Assembly (NCBI GenBank): GCA_030425645.1
Contig: JAUHZK010000007.1
Coordinates: forward strand, 91,116-155,115
Direction of reading: 5' to 3'
Origin: Gammaproteobacteria bacterium
GTDB lineage: Bacteria > Pseudomonadota > Gammaproteobacteria > JAPPPA01
Length of the DNA: 64,000 bases
The translations under genes were made by a program, and so were the position numbers. This document shows positions 4,608 through 28,517 of the stretch, in pieces (position 1 is the first letter of the stretch; each line of letters opens with the position of its first letter). The notes beneath the pieces were generated by a model. That model did no database searches. It was not told where the DNA came from and worked only from the letters and a program-made list of their open reading frames with translations.

Positions 4608-5027
4608 TTATTGAGGTGGTGCGCGCGCTGAGTAGCGGCTAAAAAAAGCGCTTTGTGGCTCTACCGCTTGTAGAGCCAGTTGTTCGCGAAACAGCTCAAA
4701 CTTAGGCTCTTCAAGCTCAGCTGCATTAGCAATGGCGAATAAGCCGGCCGCGCAAAGCTCACAGTCGTTGCCGTCGGCCATCGCGCTGGCCGGCAATAGC
4801 TGCTGCAGCAACTCCGCCGGCAAATCCATAGCCCGTAGCTGCTGCGACAACTGCGGCGACATTTGGCCACAGTAATAGGGGCTAGACACATCCGCAGAGC
4901 GCATCGCCGCCTGTGCCGCCATTGGCAGCAAGGCTTGAAATAAAGCGGCGCATAACAACAGCAAGCGCAATGCGCGGCCGCCCAAAAGGCTGCGTGCATG
5001 GCCACGTTGGCGGAATGAATTCAGCAT
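4608..5027 (-). CDS. DUF2946-family (CruR/CutF-like) leader protein with CxxC and C-terminal RAPP arrest motif
   Basis: Hydrophobic signal-like N-terminus, DCELC, ends YSARAPPQ-stop, 73 bp upstream of the metal-type OMP gene. Confidence 0.75.
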   Translation of the reverse strand: MLNSFRQRGHARSLLGGRALRLLLLCAALFQALLPMAAQAAMRSADVSSPYYCGQMSPQLSQQLRAMDLPAELLQQLLPASAMADGNDCELCAAGLFAIANAAELEEPKFELFREQLALQAVEPQSAFFSRYSARAPPQ

Positions 5028-6435: not shown

Positions 6436-6535
6436 GAAGTCTTTCTCGAGTTAAATGCTATTAAATATAGTCAATGTACAATATAATGACGGCATTATAC
6501 TTATACAATTCCATTACAACATAAAAATTTTTAGA
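6436..6535. promoter_or_regulatory. AT-rich divergent promoter region with TGTACA/TATACA boxes (putative MerR/LitR operator)
   Basis: TGTACA 6475-6480, TATACA 6502-6507, ATTACA 6513-6518 (last two 11 bp apart), between divergent genes. Confidence 0.45.
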
Positions 6536-7486
6536 ATGAGCCAGAATAACTTATACAAAATAGGAGCCGTATCACGGCTCACCGGCATCCCCACCGTGAC
6601 CATTCGCATGTGGGAACGCCGCTACCAACTAGTGGAGCCACAACGCACCGAAGCCGGCGGACGACTTTACTCGCAAGAGGACTTGCACCGGCTAGGACTA
6701 GTCAAGCAAGCCGTAGACGCTGGCAATGCGATTTCTACCGTCGCTACCCTAAGCAACCAAGAACTGCAAGAACGCCTGGCTAATAGCAGCTTTACGCCAC
6801 AAACCTCGGATCAACCGATTCGTGTGACGGTTGTCGGTGAATTTCTTAGCCGCCGCTTACAGTCTGATGACCAAGCCGATGAACTATTGAACATAGTCCA
6901 GCATTGCGATCGCATTGATGAAGTGCAACAGCAAGAGAGCGGTGTCGACGTTGTCATTTTTGAATGTGACTACCTCAGCAGCGAAGTTGGCCAGCAACTG
7001 CAGCAAGCCCGCCAAGCCAGCAACGCCCGCACCGCTGTTGTAGTGTATAGCTTTGGCTCAAAACAGGCCTTAGAGCAAATCGAAAACCTTGTAGCGTACG
7101 CGATCAAGGGGCCACTCAATCGCCAACAGCTAGCGCGTGCCTGTGTCGCCGCCGTTGGCTTGCCCAACTTAGCCGACATTGAAGCACCAGAAGAGCTACA
7201 ACAGCTTCTCTATCAACCGATTCCGTCGCGTCGCTTCAGCCCAACTCGCTTGGCCGAATTAGCCGAAGCAACCGATGTGGTGAAGTGCGAATGCCCACAG
7301 CACCTCGCTGAATTAATCAAAAGCTTGCACGCTTTCGAACAGTATTCTGCGCACTGCGAAAACCAAAGCAAACAAGATGCCGCCATGCACATGCTGCTGC
7401 ATGTCACCACCGCCAAAGCAAGGCGCCTGATGGAAGACGCCCTCAATCATTTGGTGGAATACGAAGGCACCACAGAAGCCGGTTAG
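6536..7486 (+). CDS. MerR-family transcriptional regulator (LitR/CarH-like DNA-binding domain, CECPxH C-terminal domain)
   Basis: YKIGAVSRLTGIPTVTIRMWERRY...RTEAGGRLYS HTH. Start moved to ATG 6536. Confidence 0.85.
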   Translation: MSQNNLYKIGAVSRLTGIPTVTIRMWERRYQLVEPQRTEAGGRLYSQEDLHRLGLVKQAVDAGNAISTVATLSNQELQERLANSSFTPQTSDQPIRVTVVGEFLSRRLQSDDQADELLNIVQHCDRIDEVQQQESGVDVVIFECDYLSSEVGQQLQQARQASNARTAVVVYSFGSKQALEQIENLVAYAIKGPLNRQQLARACVAAVGLPNLADIEAPEELQQLLYQPIPSRRFSPTRLAELAEATDVVKCECPQHLAELIKSLHAFEQYSAHCENQSKQDAAMHMLLHVTTAKARRLMEDALNHLVEYEGTTEAG

Positions 7487-12245: not shown

Positions 12246-13697
12246 ATGAGTACCACCATTGTTTGGTTCCGGCGCGATCTGCGCCTAACCCATAACCCTG
12301 CGCTCGCAGCTGCCGCAGAACGCGGCAGCGTAGTGCCGGTGTATATCCACGCTCCCGACGAAGAAGCCCCGTGGCAACCCGGCGCCGCTAGCCGCTGGTG
12401 GAACCACCACAGCCTCAGCGCCTTGCAACGCAGCCTTAAGGCGCAAGGCGTCAATCTCACCATTCGCAGCGGCGATAGCTTCGAGCAACTGCAACAAATC
12501 ATTCAGGAAACCGGCGCCACCTCAGTGGTCTGGAACCGCCTTTACGAACCCGCCATTATTGAGCGCGACAGCCGTATTAAAGCCCAGCTTAGCGATAGCG
12601 GCATTCACTGCCAAAGCTTTAACGCCAACCTGTTGTTTGAGCCGTGGCAGATAGAAAACAAAAGCGGCCAACCCTTCAGAGTATTCACGCCCTATTGGAA
12701 AACCTGCCTGGCACGCTTACAAGCCTGCGAAACCCGTATCCAAGCCGCACCAAAGCTGGTAGCACTTGAAGGCAAAGCACTCAAAAGCCAAACGCTAGAC
12801 GAGCTAAAACTGCTTCCAACACTCAACTGGGATGCCAGCTTCTACGACCACTGGCAACCGGGCGAAGCTGGCGCCATGGCAGCGCTGCAAAGTTTTAAGC
12901 AAGACTGTCTTAGCAGCTACAAACGCGATCGTGATTTCCCCGGTTTAGATTGCAGCTCCAAGCTATCACCGCATCTGCATTTCGGCGAGATTAGCCCTTG
13001 GCAAATTTGGGCGGCGATTTCTCAATTACCGCCTACGCACAATGAAAGCGAAGAAAACAGCCGCAAGCACTTTATGTCAGAAATCGGCTGGCGCGAGTTT
13101 GCTCACCACCTGCTATATCACTTCCCCTTTACCACCACAGAACCGCTTAACGCCAAATACAAGGCCATGCCGTGGTGGCGAAGTGGTGCATCCAGCGCCA
13201 TTGAACTACCTCACCAAGTAGACGCAGCCAAGCACCTAAAACGGTGGCAGCAAGGCAACACCGGCGTCAGCCTAGTCGACGCCGGTATGCAACAACTCTG
13301 GCAAAGCGGCTGGATGCATAACCGTGTGCGTATGGTGGTCGCCAGCTTACTCACCAAAAATATGGGCATTCATTGGCTAGAAGGCGCGCATTGGTTTTGG
13401 GACACCTTGGTTGACGCCGATCTCGCCTGCAACAGTCTTGGCTGGCAATGGGCCGCCGGCTGCGGCGCCGATGCCGCGCCCTACTTCCGTATTTTTAACC
13501 CAAATACCCAGGCCGCTCGTTTCGACGAACCCGGCAGCTATCGCAGCCAATGGCTTGGCGCCGACTGGCAACAGCGTGAAAGCTGCATCGACCTCAAAAG
13601 CAGTCGCCAACACGCGCTCGAAGCCTACGAACATATACGCCAGTTAGACGCACCACCGCCAAAGCCGAGAGGTAACTCCAATGCATCCCTGGCTTAG
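12246..13697 (+). CDS. phrB: Deoxyribodipyrimidine photolyase (class I/III CPD photolyase)
   Basis: WFRRDLRL..NPAL, SKLSPHLHFGEIS, GWMHNRVRM, LVDAD..N..GWQW. Start moved to ATG 12246 with AAGGA RBS. Confidence 0.93.
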   Translation: MSTTIVWFRRDLRLTHNPALAAAAERGSVVPVYIHAPDEEAPWQPGAASRWWNHHSLSALQRSLKAQGVNLTIRSGDSFEQLQQIIQETGATSVVWNRLYEPAIIERDSRIKAQLSDSGIHCQSFNANLLFEPWQIENKSGQPFRVFTPYWKTCLARLQACETRIQAAPKLVALEGKALKSQTLDELKLLPTLNWDASFYDHWQPGEAGAMAALQSFKQDCLSSYKRDRDFPGLDCSSKLSPHLHFGEISPWQIWAAISQLPPTHNESEENSRKHFMSEIGWREFAHHLLYHFPFTTTEPLNAKYKAMPWWRSGASSAIELPHQVDAAKHLKRWQQGNTGVSLVDAGMQQLWQSGWMHNRVRMVVASLLTKNMGIHWLEGAHWFWDTLVDADLACNSLGWQWAAGCGADAAPYFRIFNPNTQAARFDEPGSYRSQWLGADWQQRESCIDLKSSRQHALEAYEHIRQLDAPPPKPRGNSNASLA

Positions 13698-13956
13698 ACG
13701 TAAACACCGCTCCAATCAAAAAACGGCAGCACAGCGTGAGTCGTCCCAAAGCGAAACTAGGCAGTCGACAGCGGCGTACCACGCGCCCGGCACCGAGGCC
13801 CCTAGCCATATTAACCAGCAAAAAAAACGCCGACGCGATGTAAAGCAATTACTCACCAATCATTGGGATTTAGACACCCTGACACGCGAGCAACTTGAAG
13901 AAGCTCTCGGCCTCCTCGTTGACCTCAATGACAAACCGTCCAATAGAGAGACATGA
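13681..13956 (+). CDS. Small hypothetical protein
   Basis: ATG overlaps the phrB end with GAGAGG upstream. Followed by a GC hairpin (about 13964-13990). No recognisable motif. Confidence 0.35.
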   Translation: MHPWLRRKHRSNQKTAAQRESSQSETRQSTAAYHAPGTEAPSHINQQKKRRRDVKQLLTNHWDLDTLTREQLEEALGLLVDLNDKPSNRET

Positions 13957-17419: not shown

Positions 17420-18472
17420 ATGAAACATCTTTTAAAACCGCCACAACAGAAAACACGCAACACAGTCCGCCTAGCTGAGACTGTTGTTGTCGCGGGCGGC
17501 TCTGGCTACCTAGGCCGCGCCTTAGTGCGCGAGTTATTAGCCCACGGCCATAGCGTGATGATCGCCACCCGCAACCCAAGCAAAACACTGCGACAGCCTG
17601 GCTTTCCCGTGCACCCGCGATTAGCCGTATTTGACCTACACAAGCAACCACCACATCAACCCACCGTGGTTATCAACCTATGTGGCGAAAACATTGCCGC
17701 CAAACGCTGGAGCAGCAAACGCAAACAAGTACTGATAGATTCACGCATCGACCCTACGCTACTACTGGTTAATCGCTGCAACCGCGACTGGCCACAAGTC
17801 CATAGCTTTATTAACGCCTCCGCTATCGGTTTGTATGGCGACCATGGCGATGCCTGGATTGATGAAGACAGTCGCTGCGGCAACGACTTTGCCGCCCAAC
17901 TATGTCAGCAATGGGAATTATGCTTACAACCGCTGCGGCCGGACATACGCCGCGTCCATAGCCGCCTAGGTGTGGTAATAGGCGAAGCCCGATCAGGCTC
18001 CTTTCTCGGCCGCCTGCTGCCAGCCTATCGTTTTTGCATGGGCGCCCAACTTGGCAATGGTCAGCACTGGTTCAGCTGGATACACCGACAAGACGCCGCC
18101 GCCGCGCTTTGTTTTTTAATGGAAAACTATCGCTGCCAAGGCAGCTACAACCTCTGCGCGCCGCAAGCAGTACGCCACCAACGGCTACATTACCTGATAG
18201 CCAAGGTACTCAAGCGCCCCAGTAAACTGCGCTTACCCGCGGCCGCCATTAGGCTACTGTTTGGAGAAATGGCGCAACTACTACTTTGCTCACAACGCGT
18301 CACCCCTAGACGCTTAGCCAAAGCTGGCTTTGAGTTTCAATACCCCAATCTACATGGCGCGCTGTATCACGCCATCACCGGCCGGCAGCCCATTAACGGG
18401 CTGCCGTTGCCCAAGCTTGCGCGCTTGGCAACTCAGCACAGACCTCATCATCCCGCCGCTGGAAGGCGATAG
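17420..18472 (+). CDS. TIGR01777/YfcH-family NAD-dependent epimerase-like oxidoreductase
   Basis: GGSGYLG, VINLCGENIAAKRWS...K..L.DSR, LGNGQHWFSWIH, GFEFQYP. Confidence 0.85.
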   Translation: MKHLLKPPQQKTRNTVRLAETVVVAGGSGYLGRALVRELLAHGHSVMIATRNPSKTLRQPGFPVHPRLAVFDLHKQPPHQPTVVINLCGENIAAKRWSSKRKQVLIDSRIDPTLLLVNRCNRDWPQVHSFINASAIGLYGDHGDAWIDEDSRCGNDFAAQLCQQWELCLQPLRPDIRRVHSRLGVVIGEARSGSFLGRLLPAYRFCMGAQLGNGQHWFSWIHRQDAAAALCFLMENYRCQGSYNLCAPQAVRHQRLHYLIAKVLKRPSKLRLPAAAIRLLFGEMAQLLLCSQRVTPRRLAKAGFEFQYPNLHGALYHAITGRQPINGLPLPKLARLATQHRPHHPAAGRR

Positions 18473-18999: not shown

Positions 19000-19569
19000 T
19001 TATCCTTCACTAGCAAGCTGCTGCTGATACGCCAGCCAGTGGGCATACAACAAACTGCGTTGTTTAAGACTAATAGGCTGCTCGCCCATCCATACTGACA
19101 GCAGCATCTTTGCCACTTGCGGGTTATTTAAGCGGTGCAGTGGTTGCCGATTAAGGCTCAGCAGTAGCTCAGCCCCAGTCCACTGCAACTGGTAGTGGTC
19201 GCCCTTTTCCACATCTTCAAATGCGTTCACAAAGGCTTCGATCGGGGCTCTCTGACCTAATAGATCCTTGCCGTAGTTGGCCTCAATGGTGTCCATAAAT
19301 AAACCCGACAAGCGCTCGGCGGAAACTGCGATGCCGTAATCAATACGCAAACGTTTTGGATATGCGGGTGACAGCCAATCGTCGACTTCAAGCTCGGCGG
19401 GCACTGCCAGCGAAGCGGTGGTTAGGGTTTTAAACAGAAAACGATATTTGGCGCTACCGACATCTACCCACTGGGCAGCCTGGGTTGGCAAACTGAGCAG
19501 CAAGAAAATGCAACAGCTTAGTAATGACGTTCTGAGCTTAGCCATGCGGAAGCACCTTAGTGTTTTCAT
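19000..19569 (-). CDS. Chalcone-isomerase-like periplasmic lipid-binding protein
   Basis: Signal peptide, VGSAKYRFLF, DV.KGD, LLSVWMGEQP. Sits between MFS and DUF3833 genes as in related clusters. Start may be 19545. Confidence 0.6.
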   Translation of the reverse strand: MKTLRCFRMAKLRTSLLSCCIFLLLSLPTQAAQWVDVGSAKYRFLFKTLTTASLAVPAELEVDDWLSPAYPKRLRIDYGIAVSAERLSGLFMDTIEANYGKDLLGQRAPIEAFVNAFEDVEKGDHYQLQWTGAELLLSLNRQPLHRLNNPQVAKMLLSVWMGEQPISLKQRSLLYAHWLAYQQQLASEG

Positions 19570-20797
19570 CAGTAGAAACCGAGGAACTAGATAAGGCCAT
19601 TAACGGCCGCACCATGAGCGGCGAAAACATCAACAAGGCAACGATGGACTTAAGCGCCACCGGCACCCAAACATATACCGCCGTGACAAGGCTAGAAGGC
19701 AATATCGCAGCGCCTTGAGCAACCGTTGGCGACGGCCCTAGGGCACCAAACAACGCGAATGCGACCACTACTGCCAACCCCAAAGCCAGCTTCTGCGCCA
19801 TACCCCAAAAGCCAAAACTGGCGCCGACGTTTTCCGCGCCGGCCTGCAAACGCAGCGATACCCATCGGGTTTGCAAGGTCACTGGGGCAACACTATCAAT
19901 ACCGGCACAAAAGCCAGTAACCACACAGCAAAGCAAAAACCACAACACATCACCCTGGCCAAGCAAGGCCACTGGCGCAAAGGCCAAAATCGAGACCAGC
20001 ACGGCGGTTCGCCACAGGCGCAGCAGGCCCAACTGAGGAGCAAAACGCTTGTAGATGAGAACCGCAGCAATAGCCGACAAGAAGTAGGCTATTAACAGCG
20101 CCGGCAACCACTGCTCTGCACCTAACACGTCGCGACAGAACACCAGCAAGACCACACCCGGGACAGCGTTAGCAGTCGAATTCAGCAACCATAACCACCA
20201 TAGGCGCAGGCCAGCCTTGTCCTGCCATAGCACTACCAAATCCTGCTTAACCGAATTTCGCGAACTCGCAGCATTGACGCTTGGCTGCAACCACACCGAA
20301 ACCGCCATCAACAGCAGCATCAACAGCAGCAACCACCAAGCAAAACCAAACAGCGCCGGCAATAACAAACCTAAGATGGTGCCAACTAGCAGCAACGCCT
20401 CTCGACCAGCGTTCCAGCTCAACTGCTCTAGCGGCGCCCGCGTTGTTGGCGCCGCCAACCACGGTACGGCGAGCAATGTCCATCCGAAAAACAACAGTGC
20501 AATCGCCGCGGCAGCAACGAATGGGGTATAGGCCGAGAACAACAATGCCGCAGCCAACAACAGCACCAGCAGCCCCAGTTGCATAACACGGTCACGGCGA
20601 GCGACCCGATCCACCCACACTCCGACCGGCAGGTCGGTGCAGACATCAATAAAACGCGCCAACAGAAACAACCATGCGACCTCGCCAAAACCAAAGCCGC
20701 GCTGCTCTACCAACCACGTGGGCACATATAGATAGAACGGCAGCCCAAGCGCCGCCAAAGGCAAAGCCAGCAAAGAATATCGGATTATGTACAACAT
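19538..20797 (-). CDS. MFS transporter (GPH/MFS_2-like)
   Basis: About 12 hydrophobic segments, LPLAALGLPFYLYVP, ARFIDVCTDLPVGVWVDR, FGFWGMAQKLALGLA. Start moved to ATG 20797. Confidence 0.85.
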   Translation of the reverse strand: MLYIIRYSLLALPLAALGLPFYLYVPTWLVEQRGFGFGEVAWLFLLARFIDVCTDLPVGVWVDRVARRDRVMQLGLLVLLLAAALLFSAYTPFVAAAAIALLFFGWTLLAVPWLAAPTTRAPLEQLSWNAGREALLLVGTILGLLLPALFGFAWWLLLLMLLLMAVSVWLQPSVNAASSRNSVKQDLVVLWQDKAGLRLWWLWLLNSTANAVPGVVLLVFCRDVLGAEQWLPALLIAYFLSAIAAVLIYKRFAPQLGLLRLWRTAVLVSILAFAPVALLGQGDVLWFLLCCVVTGFCAGIDSVAPVTLQTRWVSLRLQAGAENVGASFGFWGMAQKLALGLAVVVAFALFGALGPSPTVAQGAAILPSSLVTAVYVWVPVALKSIVALLMFSPLMVRPLMALSSSSVSTDENTKVLPHG

Positions 20798-20845
20798 ATT
20801 TTTAAATAATAATATGTTGTACTGTTTTTGTATATGTTTTATTAT
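20788..20845 (+). promoter_or_regulatory. sigma70 promoter (-35 TTGTAC, 17 bp, -10 TATTAT) overlapped by a 12-bp inverted repeat and TGTAY boxes
   Basis: -35 at 20817-20822, -10 at 20840-20845. IR GTACAACATATT (20789-20800) / AATATGTTGTAC (20811-20822). TGTACT 20818 and TGTATA 20829 are 11 bp apart. Confidence 0.6.
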
Positions 20846-20851
20846 CTTGTT

Positions 20852-20954
20852 TCGCGCAAGCGAGTCACTTCCCTCTAGTCTCCTCCAGGAAGTGAGGCCA
20901 CGCCAGTGGTCAACAGCAAAACTTGAGGCCGCCATTTGGCGGCCTCTTTTTTTT
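20852..20954 (+). ncRNA. Candidate small regulatory RNA (three hairpins, CU-rich anti-SD loop, intrinsic terminator)
   Basis: Stem TCACTTCC/GGAAGTGA with loop CTCTAGTCTCCTCCA. Stem GGCCAC/GTGGTC. Terminator GAGGCCGCCA-TT-TGGCGGCCTC+T8. Promoter immediately upstream, no credible ORF. Confidence 0.6.
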
Positions 20955-21025
20955 GCACAACCACATGCGTATACAACTTTGCAGCAAAGCCATCTAGCCG
21001 AAACAATCGAAACCAATATGCAGGC

Positions 21026-21057
21026 AAAAAAAAACCAGCCCGAGGGCTGGTTTTTTT
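21026..21057 (-). terminator. Intrinsic terminator originally downstream of tRNA-Lys
   Basis: A9-CCAGCC-CGAG-GGCTGG-T7, directly beyond the duplicated tRNA 3' end. Confidence 0.8.
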
Positions 21058-21061
21058 GAAG

Positions 21062-21112
21062 ATGGTGGGTCGTGTAGGATTCGAACCTACGACCAATTGG
21101 TTAAAAGCCAAC
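21062..21112. repeat. att site: 51-bp direct repeat of the tRNA-Lys 3' part
   Basis: ATGGTGGGTCGTGTAGGATTCGAACCTACGACCAATTGGTTAAAAGCCAAC is identical to 28441-28491. Confidence 0.95.
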
Positions 21113-21270
21113 AACGGTATTTTAAAAAAAATTATCTAATTCAATGGGATACGAAGTTTATACTATCCCTCCAACTTCAGAATGACACAACTGTAAGCCT
21201 TTGTTTTTTATATCTTTGGCATATAGAGTGGGATAAGCTCTTATTACGTTTATTAGCTGACCAGCACTTC

Positions 21271-21552
21271 CTATCTATGGCTCGTATCTTCTCGTATGGG
21301 AAATGTTGCTGAGTACTGTTTTGCTATCGCACCCATAGCAAGCGAAAGCTCAGGTGGAAGCATAAACCACATAGGATTTCCGAAAGCATTTGGGTAGCCA
21401 ATATCTTCGTCACCATCTTCCCCATTCCACCGCATTGCCAGCTGAATATCTCCGTGCTCATACCGCCCCCACGCAACTGAAAAACCATTCAAGTCATACA
21501 AGACTTCTACAACTTGAAAGTTTTTAGGATTTACACGACTTGGATTGACCAT
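21271..21552 (-). CDS. Hypothetical cargo protein (RWNG...GYP...G.P.WF.LP motif)
   Basis: ATG with AAGGAAG RBS. Compact globular-looking sequence with W/G/P motifs. Confidence 0.7.
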   Translation of the reverse strand: MVNPSRVNPKNFQVVEVLYDLNGFSVAWGRYEHGDIQLAMRWNGEDGDEDIGYPNAFGNPMWFMLPPELSLAMGAIAKQYSATFPIREDTSHR

Positions 21553-21666
21553 TTTCTTCCTTATTTATCCTTATTTTCAGCGCAAATTAACAATCGCACC
21601 CCAGTAGATTGATAGCAAACTCAAAACGGGTTATCAAACCGCGAAAGGTCTTACCAATAACCATAG

Positions 21667-22719
21667 CTACCTGAATATCGCATCATACTTACGCAAAGTC
21701 CTATCGTCCCGAATAAGCTCGTCAACAAAATCTTCATTGGAATAAATACCTGACAACATATCTCTTACACGAAGCGGCAAATCCACAGCCTCCTCCGCGA
21801 TGACAAACTGCAAATAAGCCTTGTTAGCTTCAAACCGTTCATTTGTCATATCAAAAATTACATAAGCCGAGAGTTTTTTAAGGTCTTCATAATTTTTAAG
21901 TGCCGTGTAACGCTTAACTTCCTCCTGATAATCCAACAGGCGTTTGATAGGTATGTATCCGCTTCCCTCATCAGCTAGGATCATGCGCTGACCATCGGGA
22001 CGAGGAAACTCATTTACACACTCCATTAGCCTCTGTTGGATACCTTTGTAGGAAGTATCGGTATAAGGCTGATTCATTTTGTTTCGTGGTTCTATTGGCT
22101 CGTCAGCGTGCGTATCAAAAAAGTCAGGGGCGGAATATTGCAAGTAAATCTTGTTGGACAGCTCACTACGTCTATTGGAAGTGTTTTTAGCATATTCAAG
22201 AGTAATCTCATCTCCCCGTTCGACCTTCATTAATATCTCTTGAGCCAACTTGTTGCTCTCGCTCACAAAGGCTTTCAACTCGCTAAAGATATAATCACTT
22301 TCGGCGCTTACCTCGACCCAACCATTCTCAAACTTATCAGCTAATAATTGAGATTCGCATGCCCCAAATTTAATCAAGTGTTTGTTGAAGTGAATATCTT
22401 TCTTGAGTTTCCGCAGTTTAATTTTGTTGGCCTCATTTATTGCGGTTTGCTTCTTTACAAGCGCATCAACAAGCTCCGATACGCCACTCATTTCACATTC
22501 GTACCTAACCTCAGCAAAGCCTTCACTTTCATTTAGAACGTCCCATTTAGTTGCGTCACAGCTTTGCCATGCATCGAACACCAAACCAATAGGTTTGATT
22601 CCGAAGCTGCTAATGCTCTGTTCTTTTAGATCCGTGATCCAATCTTTTTTTCCGCAGCCTGATATACCAACAACCAATAGACAACAAAGGAAAACCATCA
22701 ATTTTTTAAGGTCAAACAT
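21667..22719 (-). CDS. Hypothetical cargo lipoprotein
   Basis: Long ORF, GGAG RBS, KK + hydrophobic stretch + ISGC lipobox. Confidence 0.75.
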   Translation of the reverse strand: MFDLKKLMVFLCCLLVVGISGCGKKDWITDLKEQSISSFGIKPIGLVFDAWQSCDATKWDVLNESEGFAEVRYECEMSGVSELVDALVKKQTAINEANKIKLRKLKKDIHFNKHLIKFGACESQLLADKFENGWVEVSAESDYIFSELKAFVSESNKLAQEILMKVERGDEITLEYAKNTSNRRSELSNKIYLQYSAPDFFDTHADEPIEPRNKMNQPYTDTSYKGIQQRLMECVNEFPRPDGQRMILADEGSGYIPIKRLLDYQEEVKRYTALKNYEDLKKLSAYVIFDMTNERFEANKAYLQFVIAEEAVDLPLRVRDMLSGIYSNEDFVDELIRDDRTLRKYDAIFR

Positions 22720-23097
22720 CTAAGACACTCCCGCCAGTCAAGCCTAATAACAACTTCGTTAGATACAAACCAATCTATGGCCGCATCTACATAATTAAAA
22801 CTACCGCCCAATTGCAAGTAGCTAATTAGATTAAAATTTTATCCACAGTAACAAGCCTTTACTAAGTGTCAACCTATTTTGTAGTGTGCGAAGGCACTAC
22901 GGCACGTGCTCTACTTACAACACGCTTTACCCACAAAAGCCCGCTACAGCCTACCATAGAATCGGCCCTCCTTTTGTATTGGATGCAAACAGATAAAACG
23001 TATCTAAACACCGGATGCAATCAAACCTGTTAACCGTATTAAAGGCCTTTTGCTTCTGCCGAAAAGGCTCCATAGCCATTTACTTGTCTTGTGGTAG

Positions 23098-23146
23098 CAC
23101 GTTATTAGCAAAACTAATTGAGTCGTCACGGTGAGCTTCATATCCT
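23098..23146 (+). promoter_or_regulatory. Repeated element promoter module, copy 1 (upstream of rep-like gene)
   Basis: CACGTTATTAGCAAAACTAATTGAGTC, with -35 TTGAGT 23118-23123, 17 bp spacer, -10 TATCCT 23141-23146. Confidence 0.75.
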
Positions 23147-23173
23147 GACCTTCTATGTAAGGAAAAAAAGGAA

Positions 23174-23611
23174 ATGAACCAATTTGATTTAATCGACAGA
23201 GAAACAGGCGAAGTCTTAGATGCAAAACACATTGTTGCGCCTAAGAAGATACCTTCAGCCTTCCACGAAGGCTTCAATATGATTGGCCTATTCGGCTGTG
23301 AATACCTGACTAAATTAGGTGCTGAAGGAAAACTCACGCTGACCGATTTCGTAGTCTTGTGTAAGTTACTCACGGATAACAACTACGAGAACAGCCAAGG
23401 CTTAAACATAGCTAAGCTGGCAAGAGACATTGGGAAAGACCGATCTCAAGTCAGCAAAGCAATCAAGCATTTGCAAAGCCACGATTTATTCATTCGACAA
23501 AAAGATAAAGACGGCCTGCCTGAGTTGCTCTTCAACCCCAACTACTTTTGGCGTGGCAGGCCAGCGCTCCATAAGCAAGCTATTCGCCACTACAAAAAAG
23601 ACAAGTCTTAA
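23174..23611 (+). CDS. RepL-like winged-helix replication/maintenance protein
   Basis: IDRETGEV N-terminal motif, HTH IAKLARDIGKDRSQVSKAIKHL, FNPNYFWRG C-terminal motif. Confidence 0.6.
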   Translation: MNQFDLIDRETGEVLDAKHIVAPKKIPSAFHEGFNMIGLFGCEYLTKLGAEGKLTLTDFVVLCKLLTDNNYENSQGLNIAKLARDIGKDRSQVSKAIKHLQSHDLFIRQKDKDGLPELLFNPNYFWRGRPALHKQAIRHYKKDKS

Positions 23612-25356
23612 AGCCCTAAGTCACGGCTATTATCTTGCTCTCTACGCTTCAACTCACGATACAGCTTGTTACTGATTGTCATTTTCGGTTTGGGTTGCGG
23701 TGCTTCTTTATCAGCAACCATTTTTTTCACCAAACCTAATGCCTTTTCACAGCAAAGAGCCGACAGGTGCAATATCTTGGTCAGGAAGTTGCCGTAATGC
23801 CTAAAGCCGGACAAGTGGTAACCCTGTTGTATTTCTCCGCCTATGTGATTGGCAAAATTTTCCGCAAAATCATTCAGCGATTCTTGGCTTAGTTCTAAGC
23901 CATAAAGCGGAACACTAAACACCACCTCAAAATCATTTGTGGCTAGTTGTTGAGTCAGACTAGGCATATAGCCTTGCGCTTCCAGTTTGTCGATTTGGCG
24001 TTGCGACAAATCACCAATGCAAAACTGAAAATAGCCCTCGCGGCGCGGGGCAATCTGCAAGACATAACCCTTGCTCGACAACTGCATTAAGCCAGCCATT
24101 TTGTCGCTGAGTTGCTCCTCTGAATAAACATGACGCTTAGGTGCTTGGTAGTTGTTTGGGTTTGAGATTATTAGCTCGTATTTATCAGCCTGAATAGCGT
24201 CGAACTGCTTTTGCAGTTCCTTCATTTTGTATTGATAACTCATGCTGCTTACAACGCCTCCTTGATTGGAGAGAAGCTCATCAAGAGCACGCCAGCGACG
24301 ATACCCAGCACGAAGGCTGAGGTTATGGTCCACAGCGTGCTTCTCAAAGTCGCCAGCTCGTGCTTCTGCATTATCTGAAGCTGGAGCTTCCTGTTGCGGT
24401 CCAGGGTTTTGCTGAACTTCTGGTATTGCTTGGTTAGACTTTGGCTCGCCTGAGTGCTCTGCTTTGTAACCCGTGTCATTTGCTCGTTGATGTTCAACAA
24501 GGTTTGTTGCAGAACTTTCTGAGTTTCTGCTTCTGTTCTGACTAAGTGCTTTTTTGATTTGGTTTGTGCAGCGGATAAGTTCTCCGCTTTCTGTGGCTTG
24601 TTCATAGCTAACTCCTTTTTCTAATAATTGTTTTAAGCTGTAGCCTTTCCCTAGTTGGGAACCCTTGAACGTAATGCCTTCCAGTTGAAAGGCCATTCCG
24701 TTGAGTCGTCCGGTGCTTGCCACATTAGGTATGGCAATCACTCCTGACGCTTTTAATCGCTCTATAAAAGCGAAAACTGATTGAGGCTCATTCAATGCCT
24801 CGTCTATGAGCTGTTGTAGCTGTTGGCGGATTGGGGCGCGCCCTTCACGCAACGCTTTTTCCATCTCGTTTTTAGTTGCTTGTTTCTTGTCGCGTTGGGC
24901 TTCTTCAAACGTCTTTGTAATCGTCAAACCGAACTGCTTTTCTAAATCGCTAGCGACGCGCATGGCAGAAAAGTATTCCCAGCGCCCATTCCATAACTGC
25001 CCGTTTAAACCGATACGGCTGGCAACGATGTGAATATGTTGTCCGTTGGTGTCGCTATGCGATACGGCAACCCATTGGTGAGCGTCGCTAAACCCCATGC
25101 GCTCCACATAGGCATTGGCCACCTCGGAAAACTTCTCTGCTGGGATGGTTTCGTTATCGGGCAGTCTTAGCCACGAGTGGCTGACTGGCTTAATGATTGA
25201 AGGGCGTTTATTTCGGCTAATGCCGAACTCTGCCGATAACTGTAGCGGGTTAGTGCCTGACATATTCCCAGCGACGATTTCAGCACCCTTGCTGTCGCCG
25301 AATACATACGACAGCGCACCGTAAAAACCGTTGCCTCTTATTGCTCCGGCTTTCAT
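23608..25356 (-). CDS. Relaxase (MOBP-like mobilisation nuclease) with C-terminal RepB'-primase-like domain
   Basis: GNGFYGALSY (catalytic Tyr region), PVSHSWLRL, HSDTNGQHIHIVASRI HUH motif, FKGSQLGKGYS. ATGA overlap with mobC. Confidence 0.88.
   Translation of the reverse strand: MKAGAIRGNGFYGALSYVFGDSKGAEIVAGNMSGTNPLQLSAEFGISRNKRPSIIKPVSHSWLRLPDNETIPAEKFSEVANAYVERMGFSDAHQWVAVSHSDTNGQHIHIVASRIGLNGQLWNGRWEYFSAMRVASDLEKQFGLTITKTFEEAQRDKKQATKNEMEKALREGRAPIRQQLQQLIDEALNEPQSVFAFIERLKASGVIAIPNVASTGRLNGMAFQLEGITFKGSQLGKGYSLKQLLEKGVSYEQATESGELIRCTNQIKKALSQNRSRNSESSATNLVEHQRANDTGYKAEHSGEPKSNQAIPEVQQNPGPQQEAPASDNAEARAGDFEKHAVDHNLSLRAGYRRWRALDELLSNQGGVVSSMSYQYKMKELQKQFDAIQADKYELIISNPNNYQAPKRHVYSEEQLSDKMAGLMQLSSKGYVLQIAPRREGYFQFCIGDLSQRQIDKLEAQGYMPSLTQQLATNDFEVVFSVPLYGLELSQESLNDFAENFANHIGGEIQQGYHLSGFRHYGNFLTKILHLSALCCEKALGLVKKMVADKEAPQPKPKMTISNKLYRELKRREQDNSRDLGL
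24249..24605 (-). CDS. MobB-like accessory protein nested out-of-frame inside the relaxase gene
   Basis: Strong AAGGAG RBS before ATG 24605, coiled coil plus one C-terminal TM helix. Same layout as nested mobB/mbeB genes. Confidence 0.65.
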   Translation of the reverse strand: MNKPQKAENLSAAQTKSKKHLVRTEAETQKVLQQTLLNINEQMTRVTKQSTQASQSLTKQYQKFSKTLDRNRKLQLQIMQKHELATLRSTLWTITSAFVLGIVAGVLLMSFSPIKEAL

Positions 25357-25691
25357 TGCGCTTTCACCCCGATTAAAGCGTTGCGGGTATCGGCTAAGAC
25401 GTTTTGCGTCCGCTCAACATCTTCGATTACGCCAGCAATGTTGGCGCGGCGCGCCAACTGATTAAGCAAGCCTGACAGCTTATTGAGCTGGGACCATGCT
25501 TTGAAATTAACAGGTGGGATATGTTGCACTTGGGCGGTAAACGCCAAGGTGCGCAAGTATTCGCCACGGGCAGCATGCCCGCGTAAATCGTCGAGTTGAT
25601 TTAGTTCTAAATCCGTTAGTCGGCACCCTATGCGGTGCGACCTTTTAAGGTCTGCGGGCAGTCTTTTTCTGCCTCTTCTTCTGTGCTCCAT
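25353..25691 (-). CDS. mobC: MobC-like ribbon-helix-helix relaxosome accessory protein
   Basis: RGRKRLP..LKRSHRIGCRLTD.E, RGEYLR, LNKLSGLLNQLARRAN. Directly upstream of the relaxase. Start ATG 25691. Confidence 0.8.
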   Translation of the reverse strand: MEHRRRGRKRLPADLKRSHRIGCRLTDLELNQLDDLRGHAARGEYLRTLAFTAQVQHIPPVNFKAWSQLNKLSGLLNQLARRANIAGVIEDVERTQNVLADTRNALIGVKAQ

Positions 25692-25724
25692 GTTTGTTGT
25701 TCTTCTAATGTCTTGCCGTCGTAA

Positions 25725-25800
25725 GCAAAGCGCCACAAGGGCACCCGTTAACGGGCAAGCAAGGATATTTGGCCAGCCAAATTACTCCTTGCTACTTCTC
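25725..25800. other. Candidate oriT
   Basis: Palindrome CCCGTTAACGGG (25744-25755) and nested IR AGCAAGGA/ATTTGGC..GCCAAAT/TCCTTGCT (25758-25793), upstream of mobC. Confidence 0.4.
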
Positions 25801-25839
25801 ACAGTAAACTATTTTACGATCTATATCAATAACTTATAT

Positions 25840-25886
25840 CGTTATTAGTAAAACTAATTGAGTCAAGCAGGAGAGATCCATAAGCT
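25840..25886 (+). promoter_or_regulatory. Repeated element promoter module, copy 2
   Basis: CGTTATTAGTAAAACTAATTGAGTCA, with -35 TTGAGT 25858-25863, 17 bp spacer, -10 TAAGCT 25881-25886. Confidence 0.75.
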
Positions 25887-25915
25887 GAAATAGTCAATTC
25901 AATAAGGAGTTATAT

Positions 25916-26305
25916 ATGACAAGAAGAAAATTAGTAAGTAGCCACAGCCCGCGCGAATACCTCACCAAGTGCAATAAAGCCATCAACATATATTGGGATT
26001 TCTACACCGTGCTAGACAAACCAGAAAAAAGAGGTTTTGTAGTCACAAATTTCACTTTAAACAATAGGTTCTTATGCTTTAAACCCGAGTTCCCTACAAG
26101 GGGCCGTTTTAACACCACGGCATTCCCCGATGAATTGAGAAGGGAGCTCCAAGTGTTTTTTTATACGAAATGTGATTTCTCTAAGGAAAATTTTGAAAAA
26201 TTGGGGTTCATAATTGAGCTAGCAATTATGCTGATTAAGCACAGTAAGCACTTCGAGAATCATTGCATGAGCTTTTATGAAATGGCTGTAAGAACCGGGT
26301 CATAA
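25916..26305 (+). CDS. Hypothetical protein
   Basis: Strong TAAGGAG RBS, located right behind promoter module copy 2. Confidence 0.65.
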   Translation: MTRRKLVSSHSPREYLTKCNKAINIYWDFYTVLDKPEKRGFVVTNFTLNNRFLCFKPEFPTRGRFNTTAFPDELRRELQVFFYTKCDFSKENFEKLGFIIELAIMLIKHSKHFENHCMSFYEMAVRTGS

Positions 26306-26367
26306 CCCTTTTAATTTTAACTTTGGTCACAGCCAGAACAGTATATGACGCAGTCACCCATAGGCCT

Positions 26368-26904
26368 TTATAAAACACTCTCTATCTCTGAGCTTATGTG
26401 TCTGGCCTGTGTGACTTGCTTCCGCCTCATTTCGTCAGAGGCTTTCAAAATATCCCATAGCTCGGTGCGCTTTGTTCCACCGTCGCTATCATTCTCTGCC
26501 TTGCCAAGGCCCGCTATTTGGCTGTGTAGACGAGCAACTTGTCTTTCTAAACGCTCGTTGTCAGAAGTCAAAAATTGAAGCCTTGCAGTCATAGCATTAA
26601 GGCGGTTGGCTTCTTGTGTTTGTTTCATTTGCAACCATAGTGCCTTGGCTTGCTCGGCGTTTGCGTCGGTGCTGGCCTTTAGCTCTCGTCCCTGTAGCAA
26701 GATAGCAATAAGCCCAAGCGTAATTGCCATTGTGGTGAAAATTCCGTCAGTGATCGCTAAGGCATCACCCAGCCCCGCTAAAGTTGTGGGTAGCTCCATA
26801 CCCTCCAAAAACGTTGGCAGCGGAGCTAATCCCGTCGCCACCAAAAGTACTGCTCCCCAAGTCGAAAGAACTAGCGCTACTAGCAGTGCAACATTCGCAT
26901 TCAT
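26368..26904 (-). CDS. Hypothetical membrane protein (two TM helices + coiled coil)
   Basis: Two hydrophobic segments (..GLGDALAITDGIF..LIAILLQGREL) followed by a heptad-rich region. Start moved to ATG 26904. Confidence 0.7.
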   Translation of the reverse strand: MNANVALLVALVLSTWGAVLLVATGLAPLPTFLEGMELPTTLAGLGDALAITDGIFTTMAITLGLIAILLQGRELKASTDANAEQAKALWLQMKQTQEANRLNAMTARLQFLTSDNERLERQVARLHSQIAGLGKAENDSDGGTKRTELWDILKASDEMRRKQVTQARHISSEIESVL

Positions 26905-26959
26905 ATTGATTACCTGTGCTTTTTGACAATTATTTTTAACCAACGCATAAGGCCTAACC

Positions 26960-27008
26960 CACGTTATTAGTAAAACTAATTGAGTCACTATTGCACGCTC
27001 AATAGTAT
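26960..27008 (+). promoter_or_regulatory. Repeated element promoter module, copy 3 (upstream of sORF-xis-int)
   Basis: CACGTTATTAGTAAAACTAATTGAGTCA, with -35 TTGAGT 26980-26985, 17 bp spacer, -10 TAGTAT 27003-27008. Confidence 0.75.
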
Positions 27009-27032
27009 GGGCGCCTCTAATAAGGAAGAGGC

Positions 27033-27131
27033 ATGAACCAATACGAAAAAACTATATATAACAGGCGAGTAGAGTGGCGCCAAGCGCACGTAAAAAATAC
27101 AGACTCAAGTGAAACCGGAGGTGACTCATGA
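27033..27131 (+). CDS. 32-aa small ORF coupled to the xis-like gene (not in ORF track)
   Basis: TAAGGAAGAGG RBS. MNQYEKTIYNRRVEWRQAHVKNTDSSETGGDS*, with an ATGA stop/start overlap at 27128-27131. Confidence 0.5.
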   Translation: MNQYEKTIYNRRVEWRQAHVKNTDSSETGGDS

Positions 27132-27352
27132 AACCTTCTGATCAACTTGGATCAACATATTCACGATTTTTATCGAAGCAGGAGCTAATAGATTTAACAG
27201 GCAAGAGGGCTGCTTCAGCCCAACGCCGTGCGTTAGATTTTATGAAACTGCCCTACATAAGGAGACCCGACGGCACACCAGTTGTCACGTCTGGAATCTT
27301 TGAAAGCAGAGGCAATAGGAAAAACTCACCTAACTGGGAGAGCTTGTCATGA
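27128..27352 (+). CDS. DUF4224-like protein, probable excisionase/RDF
   Basis: FLSKQELIDLTG....AQRRAL.......RPDGTPVV...PNW pattern. ATGA overlap with the integrase. Confidence 0.75.
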   Translation: MKPSDQLGSTYSRFLSKQELIDLTGKRAASAQRRALDFMKLPYIRRPDGTPVVTSGIFESRGNRKNSPNWESLS

Positions 27353-28374
27353 AATCATTTGCGCAAGGAGTCCGCTGGAAGTGCGGCGCATATCGTTATC
27401 GCGTACCCCGCTGGGTAGAGCAAAGCACCGTGGATAGCGTATTCAACGGGAAAAGAGAATATAAATTAGGTAAAACCCAATATGAAGCGGCGGTCGAGTA
27501 TGCCCGCGTTATGCGTGAGCTTGAGGGACCAATTAGTACCATAGTAACCATGGGCGACTTAATGACCCGTTATAGGTCGGAAGTCGTCCCTCTGAAGCAC
27601 CCCAAGACTCAAACAAGCAATATCATTAGCTTAAACAGGCTTTACAGTGTTTTTGCCAATATTCAACCAATTAACTTTGAGACCACTTTTGTCTTCCAAT
27701 ACCGAGACAAGCTAAAGGACACACGAACTAGCGCCAACAGAGACTTAGAAGTTTTAAGCCATCTTTTTAGCAAAGCGATTGAGTGGGGGGTTATAAAAAA
27801 CGAAGCACACCCAATGAGGGGATTGAACTATAAATATAGCAATCCCCCACGAGACAGGTACGTGAGCGACACAGAAGTCGAAGAAGCCCTTAAGGTGGCT
27901 TCTCCATTCCTATACGCCTATATCCAGCTCAAGCTCTCTCTGGGGTTGCGCAAAGGCGACATGCTACGCATTAAGCTCTCTGATTTGACTCCCGAGGGCA
28001 TACAAGCGACCAATACTAAAACAGGCAAAAAAACTTTATATACGCTGACTCCAGAGAGAAAAACGGCATGGGACTTATGCCTTAAAGCTCGACCAAGGAG
28101 TCGCACTCACTTCAATCTTTTGTTCTGCACAAGAGACGGCAAACCCTATATTGACGAGCAAGGCACAACCTCTGGTTTCGATAGTGTATGGCAACGCTTT
28201 ATGAAAAAAGCTTTGGCAGAAACCAATCTAGAAGAAAGATTTACGGAACACGATCTAAGGGCAAAAGTTGCTAGCGACAGCAAAGACAGCGAACAAGCGC
28301 GCAAGCGTATGGGCCACACCAGCTCTGCCGTAACAGAACGCGTATATAGGAGAAAAGCTGAGAGAGCAGACTAA
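27349..28374 (+). CDS. int: Tyrosine recombinase/integrase
   Basis: ANRDLEVLSHLFSKAIEWG, GLRKGD (Arg), KTGK, HDLRAK, MGH, VY catalytic set. Adjacent to the att site. Confidence 0.93.
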   Translation: MKSFAQGVRWKCGAYRYRVPRWVEQSTVDSVFNGKREYKLGKTQYEAAVEYARVMRELEGPISTIVTMGDLMTRYRSEVVPLKHPKTQTSNIISLNRLYSVFANIQPINFETTFVFQYRDKLKDTRTSANRDLEVLSHLFSKAIEWGVIKNEAHPMRGLNYKYSNPPRDRYVSDTEVEEALKVASPFLYAYIQLKLSLGLRKGDMLRIKLSDLTPEGIQATNTKTGKKTLYTLTPERKTAWDLCLKARPRSRTHFNLLFCTRDGKPYIDEQGTTSGFDSVWQRFMKKALAETNLEERFTEHDLRAKVASDSKDSEQARKRMGHTSSAVTERVYRRKAERAD

Positions 28375-28378
28375 CTCC

Positions 28379-28411
28379 GTGGGATAAACCACGGTTTGTG
28401 GGATAAGCTCT
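28379..28411 (+). repeat. Putative integrase arm-type sites (GTGGGATAA)
   Basis: GTGGGATAA 28379-28387 and GTGGGATAAGCTCT 28398-28411. The same 14-mer occurs at 21228-21241 near the other att. Confidence 0.6.
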
Positions 28412-28441
28412 CCGGCCCGAAGGCCGGAAACCCTTATAAAA

Positions 28442-28517
28442 TGGTGGGTCGTGTAGGATTCGAACCTACGACCAATTGGTTAAAAGCCAACTGCTCTACC
28501 AACTGAGCTAACGACCC
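28442..28517 (-). tRNA. tRNA-Lys (anticodon UUU)
   Basis: Reverse complement GGGTCGTTAGCTCAGTTGGTAGAGCAGTTGGCTTTTAACCAATTGGTCGTAGGTTCGAATCCTACACGACCCACCA, 76 nt with encoded CCA. Confidence 0.98.

Follow-up and report, generated by a model that had tools for sequence, protein, structure and literature searches.

Positions 20853–20954 of a 64,000-nucleotide (nt) stretch of a gammaproteobacterial genome (contig JAUHZK010000007.1; this whole stretch is called the window below) most likely hold a + strand gene for a small RNA, stand-alone and lineage-specific, a reading to which we assign a probability of about 0.45. The genome that holds the window comprises 2.75 Mb in 16 contigs. Within it, the candidate sits in a 260-nt gap that runs from the start of an MFS_2 transporter gene (left) to the former 3′ end of a tRNA-Lys gene (right), in a cluster that also encodes a photolyase, a cyclopropane-fatty-acid synthase, a DUF1365 protein, FAD oxidoreductases and a 343-residue MerR-family protein. 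That a discrete + strand RNA is made from this sequence seems to us probable; that this RNA is a functional riboregulator is a more tentative proposition, somewhat short of an even bet. An earlier annotation, made from the sequence alone (hereafter the initial annotation), had proposed a trans-acting anti-Shine-Dalgarno small RNA of the cuckoo/CcsR type, induced by light or singlet oxygen under the local MerR-family regulator, and the evidence described here supports some parts of that proposal and not others. Should the RNA prove real, the response of a non-phototrophic marine bacterium to light and photo-oxidative stress would gain a post-transcriptional layer. As things stand, it is one more well-formed small RNA prediction from an uncultured lineage.

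Anatomy of the candidate RNA and its conservation

The candidate and its putative promoter consist of the following elements.

20853–20954, + strand: predicted small RNA of about 100 nt (a 102-nt stretch), its start placed 7–9 nt past the −10 hexamer and its end in the U8 tail
20865–20895, + strand: hairpin 1, with an 8-bp stem and a 15-nt pyrimidine-rich loop, the proposed seed (fold prediction)
20896–20911, + strand: hairpin 2, GGCCAC/GTGGTC, with a 6-bp stem that includes one G-U pair and the loop GCCA (fold prediction)
20912–20924, + strand: A-rich 13-nt linker, AACAGCAAAACUU, before the terminator, unpaired in both the minimum-free-energy and the centroid structure
20925–20954, + strand: intrinsic terminator, with a 9-bp stem (8 G-C pairs), a 4-nt loop and a T8 tail (terminator scan)
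20817–20845, + strand: putative sigma-70-type promoter, TTGTAC (20817–20822), a 17-nt spacer and TATTAT (20840–20845), read from the sequence

Fold prediction and terminator scan place the hairpins and the T8-tailed terminator where the initial annotation had seen them. The stem of hairpin 1, TCACTTCC/GGAAGTGA (20865–20872/20888–20895), encloses the loop CTCTAGTCTCCTCCA (CUCUAGUCUCCUCCA at 20873–20887), which is unpaired in the predicted fold; pyrimidines account for 19 of the 24 bases in 20865–20888, a density matched by 0.2% of genome windows. Folded as a whole, the 102 nt reach −43.9 kcal/mol versus −28.0 ± 3.5 in shuffled sequences (z −4.56, with none of 200 shuffles as good), and the RNA body without its terminator still gives z −2.59, a value equalled by 2 of 200 shuffles. 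The direction of transcription is indicated by the terminator. Its T tail, scored here by a rule of the d'Aubenton-Carafa type, reaches 5.13 on the + strand versus 0.76 on the − strand, so that this is a terminator in the + direction only and would serve a + strand transcript. Furthermore, since the closest + strand gene upstream stops at 18472, with three − strand genes intervening, a + strand transcript that ends at 20950–20954 must start within 20798–20925.

Neither a protein nor a downstream gene accounts for these features. The earlier claim that no credible open reading frame (ORF) lies between promoter and terminator is borne out by the ORF listing, in which all + strand ORFs of at least 20 residues begin upstream of the promoter or within the terminator and cross terminators; a GUG frame of 6 codons, ending at the terminator's foot, was seen by eye and given no weight. 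A leader or riboswitch is ruled out, because tRNA-Lys and the terminator of that tRNA converge on the candidate and no gene follows it. Likewise, the candidate is single-copy in the genome and not part of a repeat family, which rules out a repetitive extragenic palindromic (REP)-like repeat. The combination of a pyrimidine-rich stretch and a terminator is uncommon: four of the genome's 214 strong terminators are preceded, within 90 nt, by a pyrimidine-rich stretch that bears CCTCC, and the other three belong to tRNA-Ser, to transfer-messenger RNA (tmRNA) and to the 3′ end of a 915-residue gene. Downstream of a 915-residue gene on contig C11 of this genome (31515–31700, − strand) we also observe a structured stretch of about 180 nt, neither tRNA nor tmRNA, with a CCUCCC-containing region and a strong T8 terminator, which could be an RNA derived from a 3′ untranslated region.

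Conservation was read from metagenome contigs of close relatives aligned to 20400–21400. In the contigs from three sequencing runs (X7, X8 and X10), no substitution is listed over 20851–20946, and the only listed change inside the RNA is one T more or fewer in the tail. The X10 contig spans 20683–20977 and carries 3 substitutions (20690, 20783 and 20850). That of X8 spans 20625–21089 with 12 substitutions, 11 of them listed; the promoter–RNA block has only the one at 20850, and 7 lie within 20979–21044. The X7 contig spans 20572–21021 with 18 substitutions, of which 16 are listed, none of them in 20691–20963 and 10 within 20964–20993. In the worst case, with the unlisted differences all put in the RNA body, X7 would have 2 changes in 94 positions versus 10 in the 58 nt that follow (Fisher p 0.0012), and X8 1 in 94 versus 7 in 95 of the following spacer (p 0.033). 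In these contigs of close relatives the candidate is conserved to the same degree as the coding sequence beside it, and the support that conservation lends to the candidate is real but shallow.

The search for more distant relatives had little to add. DNA searches returned only chance matches of at most 24 nt, both in the genus (1 other genome) and in the family and the order, each of which comprises the same 2 other genomes. Neither the MFS nor the DUF3833 protein turned up in the two other genomes of the order (88% and 75% complete), in both of which tRNA-Lys is followed by an integrase and then by the contig end, so that the matching flank is out of view. Metagenome scans with the MFS protein and with a 22-nt pattern from the RNA gave no match, and a scan of genome contigs with the single MFS protein gave none either. 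A covariance model, built from the candidate sequence alone, entered twice, found only terminator-driven matches of up to 32.6 bits among 20 relatives and none in the two closest genomes. At the level of the class, the MFS gene is present in 2 of 400 genomes, this genome included and one genome unscored; the other copy lies in an operon behind a cyclopropane-fatty-acid synthase gene, with no such RNA unit. An alignment-based scan recovered 13 MFS loci in Zhongshania/Spongiibacter at 37–40% identity, which are the nearest named relatives and gammaproteobacterial, and at 10 of these 13 loci the gene that the MFS gene faces encodes 446–455 residues, with no RNA unit in between. The conservation of loop and stems in relatives, by which the initial annotation would have had its RNA judged, is present at strain level over 20851–20946 in X7, X8 and X10, and these searches reached no homologue beyond that level.

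Known RNA families and a proposed mode of action

The candidate belongs to no known RNA family. The Rfam comparison suggested with the initial annotation gave no match at gathering score for the candidate in the window, and of the weak matches, the one with the best coverage of the predicted RNA is to Hrs13 (RF02631; 20866–20953, 22.5 bits versus a gathering score of 52), which is similar in length and likewise ends in a terminator, but sub-threshold matches of this sort are mostly chance. It may nonetheless work in the manner of cuckoo/CcsR or of the C-rich-loop RNAs. RsaE/RoxS are small RNAs of the latter kind, with C-rich loops that mask ribosome-binding sites. RNAIII, with its UCCC loops (PMC4615179), is another. 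The proposed mode is the same for all of these, an exposed pyrimidine-rich loop on Shine-Dalgarno regions; however, RNAIII and RsaE/RoxS come from Firmicutes and have several C-rich regions and targets that are proven, whereas the candidate has one loop and no standout target.

The kinship with cuckoo/CcsR asserted by the initial annotation did not hold up, and the candidate is not a member of that family. As described in PMC4615179, the cuckoo/CcsR RNAs consist of two to four adjacent hairpins, each with the loop motif CCUCCUCCC, and CcsR1–4 (RSs0680a–d; RF02344) are transcribed jointly with a small upstream gene from an RpoHI/HII promoter. Here the loop of hairpin 1 has UCUCCUCCA, which agrees with CCUCCUCCC at 7 of 9 positions and is the one point in favor of membership, but the loop of hairpin 2 is GCCA, so that a single partial motif stands where the family has one in each hairpin. 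Moreover, RF02344 is absent among the 34 Rfam matches with E up to 10 in 20700–21100, and no ORF, and no upstream co-transcribed gene, lies between the MFS start and the RNA, which has sigma-70-like hexamers of its own as a putative promoter. What the candidate does have in common with the family is a C/U-rich, anti-Shine-Dalgarno-like hairpin loop, a link to stress and an Hfq gene in the genome. The family is alphaproteobacterial (Rhodobacterales or Rhizobiales), unlike the nearest named MFS relatives here. With the loop motif count and the Rfam scan both contradicting it, membership retains a vanishingly small probability.

In the scheme that we favor, transcription would start some 7–9 nt past TATTAT, run through the two hairpins and the A-rich linker and stop at the one-directional terminator, and the product would be about 100 nt long and U-rich at its 3′ end. 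The loop of hairpin 1, whose core UCUCCUCC is complementary to strong Shine-Dalgarno sequences, would then base pair in trans with purine-rich ribosome-binding sites and lower translation. Hfq is encoded in the genome (PF17209, 102 bits versus a cut-off of 27). Together with the U8 tail, the A-rich linker at 20912–20924 agrees with the layout usual for Hfq binding and is a possible Hfq contact, and Hfq on the linker and the U tail could assist the pairing.

No target is claimed. A search for 9-mer seed matches found the longest ones at the start regions of two penicillin-amidase-family lipoprotein genes, a DUF1329 gene and an amidohydrolase gene, the penicillin-amidase-family and DUF1329 products being exported enzymes. 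The two penicillin-amidase-family genes are paralogues that encode more than 900 residues (contigs C8:230308–233151 and C11:76674–79433 of this genome), and both have the start region UGGAGGAGA(N2–3)AUG, which gives the longest matches to the candidate loop.

Neighboring features and alternative readings

The choice between a small RNA gene and other readings of this region depends in part on what flanks it.

19538–20797, − strand: MFS_2 transporter gene (Pfam), with its start at ATG 20797 as judged from the N-termini of relatives
20789–20822, no strand assigned: near-perfect palindrome of 34 bp, a putative repressor operator, with arms at 20789–20804 and 20807–20822 of 16 nt each that are 94% complementary
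20832–20841, no strand assigned: third, degenerate box copy, ATATGTTTTA, which lies across the −10 hexamers of the two divergent promoters
21027–21058, no strand assigned: bidirectional terminator of tRNA-Lys, with tail scores of 4.73 (+) and 5.59 (−)
21059–21109, − strand: copy of some 50 nt from the 3′ end of tRNA-Lys, an attachment-site repeat that bounds a mobilisable island (alignment to the full tRNA at 28442–28517)

A number of observations weigh against a small RNA gene. The + strand promoter, called canonical in the initial annotation, was overstated: it agrees with the consensus at 8 of 12 positions (TTGTAC versus TTGACA at 3 of 6, TATTAT at 5 of 6), the promoter scan listed no + strand promoter above threshold in the region, and promoter-like sites there are no more frequent than in shuffles (2 versus 2.2 ± 1.7). 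The reverse strand of 20853–20954 folds about equally well (z −4.03), so that the fold alone gives no strand. As for conservation, the RNA body does not exceed the MFS coding sequence (p 0.57), and the conserved block also takes in the promoter–operator region and the first 27 MFS codons. The X7 and X8 contigs are not independent, because three spacer substitutions are common to both, and the spacer with which the RNA was compared, which lies beside a tRNA integration hot spot, may be variable for reasons of its own. A second contig in run X3 (20634–20894), from the only more divergent relative seen, has 38 differences in 261 nt, and since 7 of the 38 are listed, the hairpins of that relative are not readable. 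No homologue from which covariation could be read was reached beyond strain level. Of the 24 listed sequencing runs, 20 contain part of the stretch, none of them an RNA run, and the DNA occurs in aquaculture, biofloc or macroalgal habitats. Finally, target prediction from the loop, which had been proposed as a check, did no better than shuffled seeds: the seed duplex minimum of −33.8 kcal/mol over 2,454 crude gene starts falls within the −27.8 to −35.5 of 20 such seeds, and among genome start regions none of the 13 from the cluster does better than percentile 0.405, with MFS at 0.998. Of the trans-acting small RNA first proposed, the anatomy of an independent gene has survived (a one-way terminator, no ORF or downstream gene, a single copy).

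Some of these points suit a reading in which the region is regulatory and insulating DNA only, made up of bidirectional promoters and an operator for the MFS operon, with a terminator that stops a by-product transcript before tRNA-Lys and an RNA without function in trans. We regard this as unlikely, although it is the most serious competitor. The −10 hexamers of the + strand promoter and of a − strand candidate (GTGACT-16-GATAAT) overlap, as such an arrangement would have it, and neither distinctive targets nor a homologue beyond strain level came to light; yet a mere stop signal would leave unexplained why in three contigs no substitution is listed for the linker or for hairpins 1 and 2 with their loops whereas the next 58–95 nt are variable, and why a pyrimidine-rich loop should be held in a stable stem. 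It is quite improbable that there is no + strand transcript at all and that the hairpins are a structured spacer, or a fail-safe terminator after tRNA-Lys on the − strand, that shields the MFS promoter from read-through. The region does lie about 105 nt downstream of the original 3′ end of tRNA-Lys, and the hairpin of the candidate terminator was also flagged by the scan as terminator-like on the − strand, whose fold is equally stable, but the terminator of tRNA-Lys itself is strong (5.59), the tail of the second hairpin scores only 0.76 in that direction, and a perfect + strand T8 would be left without purpose. The chance of a local action, with the MFS operon or the MerR mRNA of the same cluster as target in place of distant genes, appears slimmer again: the divergent position of the RNA, the shared operator and the common gene cluster would fit, but the cluster start regions pair poorly with the seed (percentile at least 0.405, and 0.998 for MFS), and neither − strand promoter is predicted to give an MFS mRNA that overlaps the RNA.

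A coding function, as an N-terminal extension of the MFS protein or as a small + strand protein, has next to no probability and is ruled out by the start of the relatives at 20797 and by the positions of the ORFs. The idea arises because the − strand frame is open to 21016 and the protein collection includes a 465-residue version of the MFS protein (19538–20935, −), the first 46 residues of which read through the candidate RNA and the operator; on the + strand there is an ORF of 90 residues at 20787–21059. However, MFS relatives at 86, 76 and 70% identity have as their N-terminus the Met that corresponds to 20797, which is why we consider the automated 465-residue call over-extended and flag it as an annotation error that crosses the candidate RNA region. 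The 90-residue ORF, in turn, starts upstream of the promoter and crosses two terminators, and substitutions are dense in this region (10 in 30 nt at 20964–20993).

The putative operator, the MerR-family regulator and the gene setting

The left arm of the palindrome spans the MFS ATG and the right arm spans the −35 hexamer of the + strand promoter. Taken together with the third box, it spans the −35 and −10 hexamers of that promoter, the MFS start codon and both − strand promoter candidates listed by the promoter scan, GTGACT-16-GATAAT (20868 to 20841) and TATACA-17-TATTAT (20834 to 20806); one repressor could therefore gate both the MFS operon and the RNA. The inverted repeat of 12 bp that the initial annotation reported at the promoter is real, but its size was understated, given arms of 16 nt and the additional third box. 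In the proposed scheme, a repressor on the palindrome and the third box, overlapping the promoter hexamers of the RNA and the start of the MFS operon, would switch both units together, and were the RNA real, this would be a compact case of one operator for a transporter operon and a divergent regulatory RNA. Use of the TATACA-17-TATTAT candidate would make the MFS mRNA leaderless or nearly so. The sequence upstream of both the MFS (20797) and the MerR-family (6536) gene is AT-rich and lacks a Shine-Dalgarno motif (AAAAAUAUG and UUUUUAGAAUG).

The best candidate for such a repressor would be the CarH/LitR-like MerR protein of the cluster.

6455–7486, + strand: MerR-family regulator with a CarH/LitR/MlrA-like helix-turn-helix (HTH), likely start ATG 6536; GTACAAYATA boxes at 6476–6485 and 6514–6523

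The closest solved structure to its HTH, and to the HTH only, is that of CarH (E 2.6e-9). The whole protein scores 42.5 bits versus a cut-off of 400 for the NCBIfam CarH model, and its C-terminal 240 residues match no Pfam family. The perfect box GTACAAYATA occurs 7 times in the 2.75 Mb, and 3 of the 7 copies are found in the RNA–MFS gap and upstream of the MerR gene. Box pairs with at most 2 summed mismatches are confined, genome-wide, to these same two places, and a pair of perfect boxes exists genome-wide only in the palindrome at 20789–20822, where alone the 12-mer version of the box is likewise paired. There is no regulon-wide box motif beyond the two loci; the one other perfect box between genes is found upstream of a tadA-like deaminase gene. 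On the other side of the balance, the number of boxes in the window is not above chance (7 versus 5.0), and the class II LitR operator T(G/A)TACA-N12-TGTA(C/T)A, as given in PMC9758184, is absent genome-wide (0 exact occurrences, 2 with one mismatch). The half-sites are present at the palindrome, but their TGTAC cores are 24 nt apart.

Comparison with the class II LitR/CarH regulons of Pseudomonas (PplR1, PmlR2; PMC9758184) reveals a similar setting. In both cases the cluster includes photolyase, cyclopropane-fatty-acid synthase and DUF1365, the regulator has a CarH-like MerR HTH, and TGTACA half-sites lie over the −35 hexamer and the transcript start; the operator itself differs, with N12 spacing in Pseudomonas (PMC9758184) and a 34-bp palindrome with cores 24 nt apart here. 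Control by the local MerR-family protein, as the initial annotation had it, therefore receives modest support from boxes common only to the two loci and from the CarH-like HTH, and is without the published LitR N12 spacing. We consider such control of the candidate RNA possible but, on balance, doubtful, and we treat the link as a reasonable lead and not as a result. A fuller version, in which release of a CarH/LitR-like repressor turns on the RNA together with the photoprotection cluster and the anti-Shine-Dalgarno loop damps strongly translated mRNAs in the light, is rather improbable. Were it true, this would make it the first case in which the LitR-type light response of a non-phototrophic bacterium has a riboregulatory arm. 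To our knowledge, the light and photo-oxidative response of non-phototrophs has so far been described only in terms of repressors and sigma factors, and none of the papers listed by one literature search ties LitR or CarH to a small RNA of bacteria.

The MFS_2 gene is the first of its operon, followed by a chalcone-isomerase-like gene and a DUF3833 gene (Pfam). Its relatives in Zhongshania/Spongiibacter have, about 100 nt upstream, TGATC...CGTA elements in a region shared with the divergent gene for about 450 residues. These elements resemble promoters of the RpoE/ChrR-type extracytoplasmic function class, and the MFS genes may thus be under a sigma/anti-sigma switch in Zhongshania/Spongiibacter versus a MerR-type repressor here. 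Elsewhere in the cluster of photolyase and cyclopropane-fatty-acid synthase genes lie two small ORFs with no Pfam family, one for 139 residues (4608–5027, −) and one for 91 residues (13681–13956, +).

To the right of the candidate, the bidirectional tRNA-Lys terminator would provide a back-up stop for a + strand transcript. Beyond it, an integrative mobilisable island of about 7.4 kb, with a lower G+C content (0.36–0.48), is inserted in tRNA-Lys(ttt) and occupies 21059–28517 of the window. The intact tRNA-Lys(ttt) now lies at 28442–28517. The island encodes a MarR/HTH protein (23174–23611), a MobA-type relaxase (23608–25356), a NikA-like protein (25353–25736) and an integrase (27349–28374). 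The tRNA-Lys site appears to be an integration hot spot, because both related genomes also have an integrase beside tRNA-Lys.

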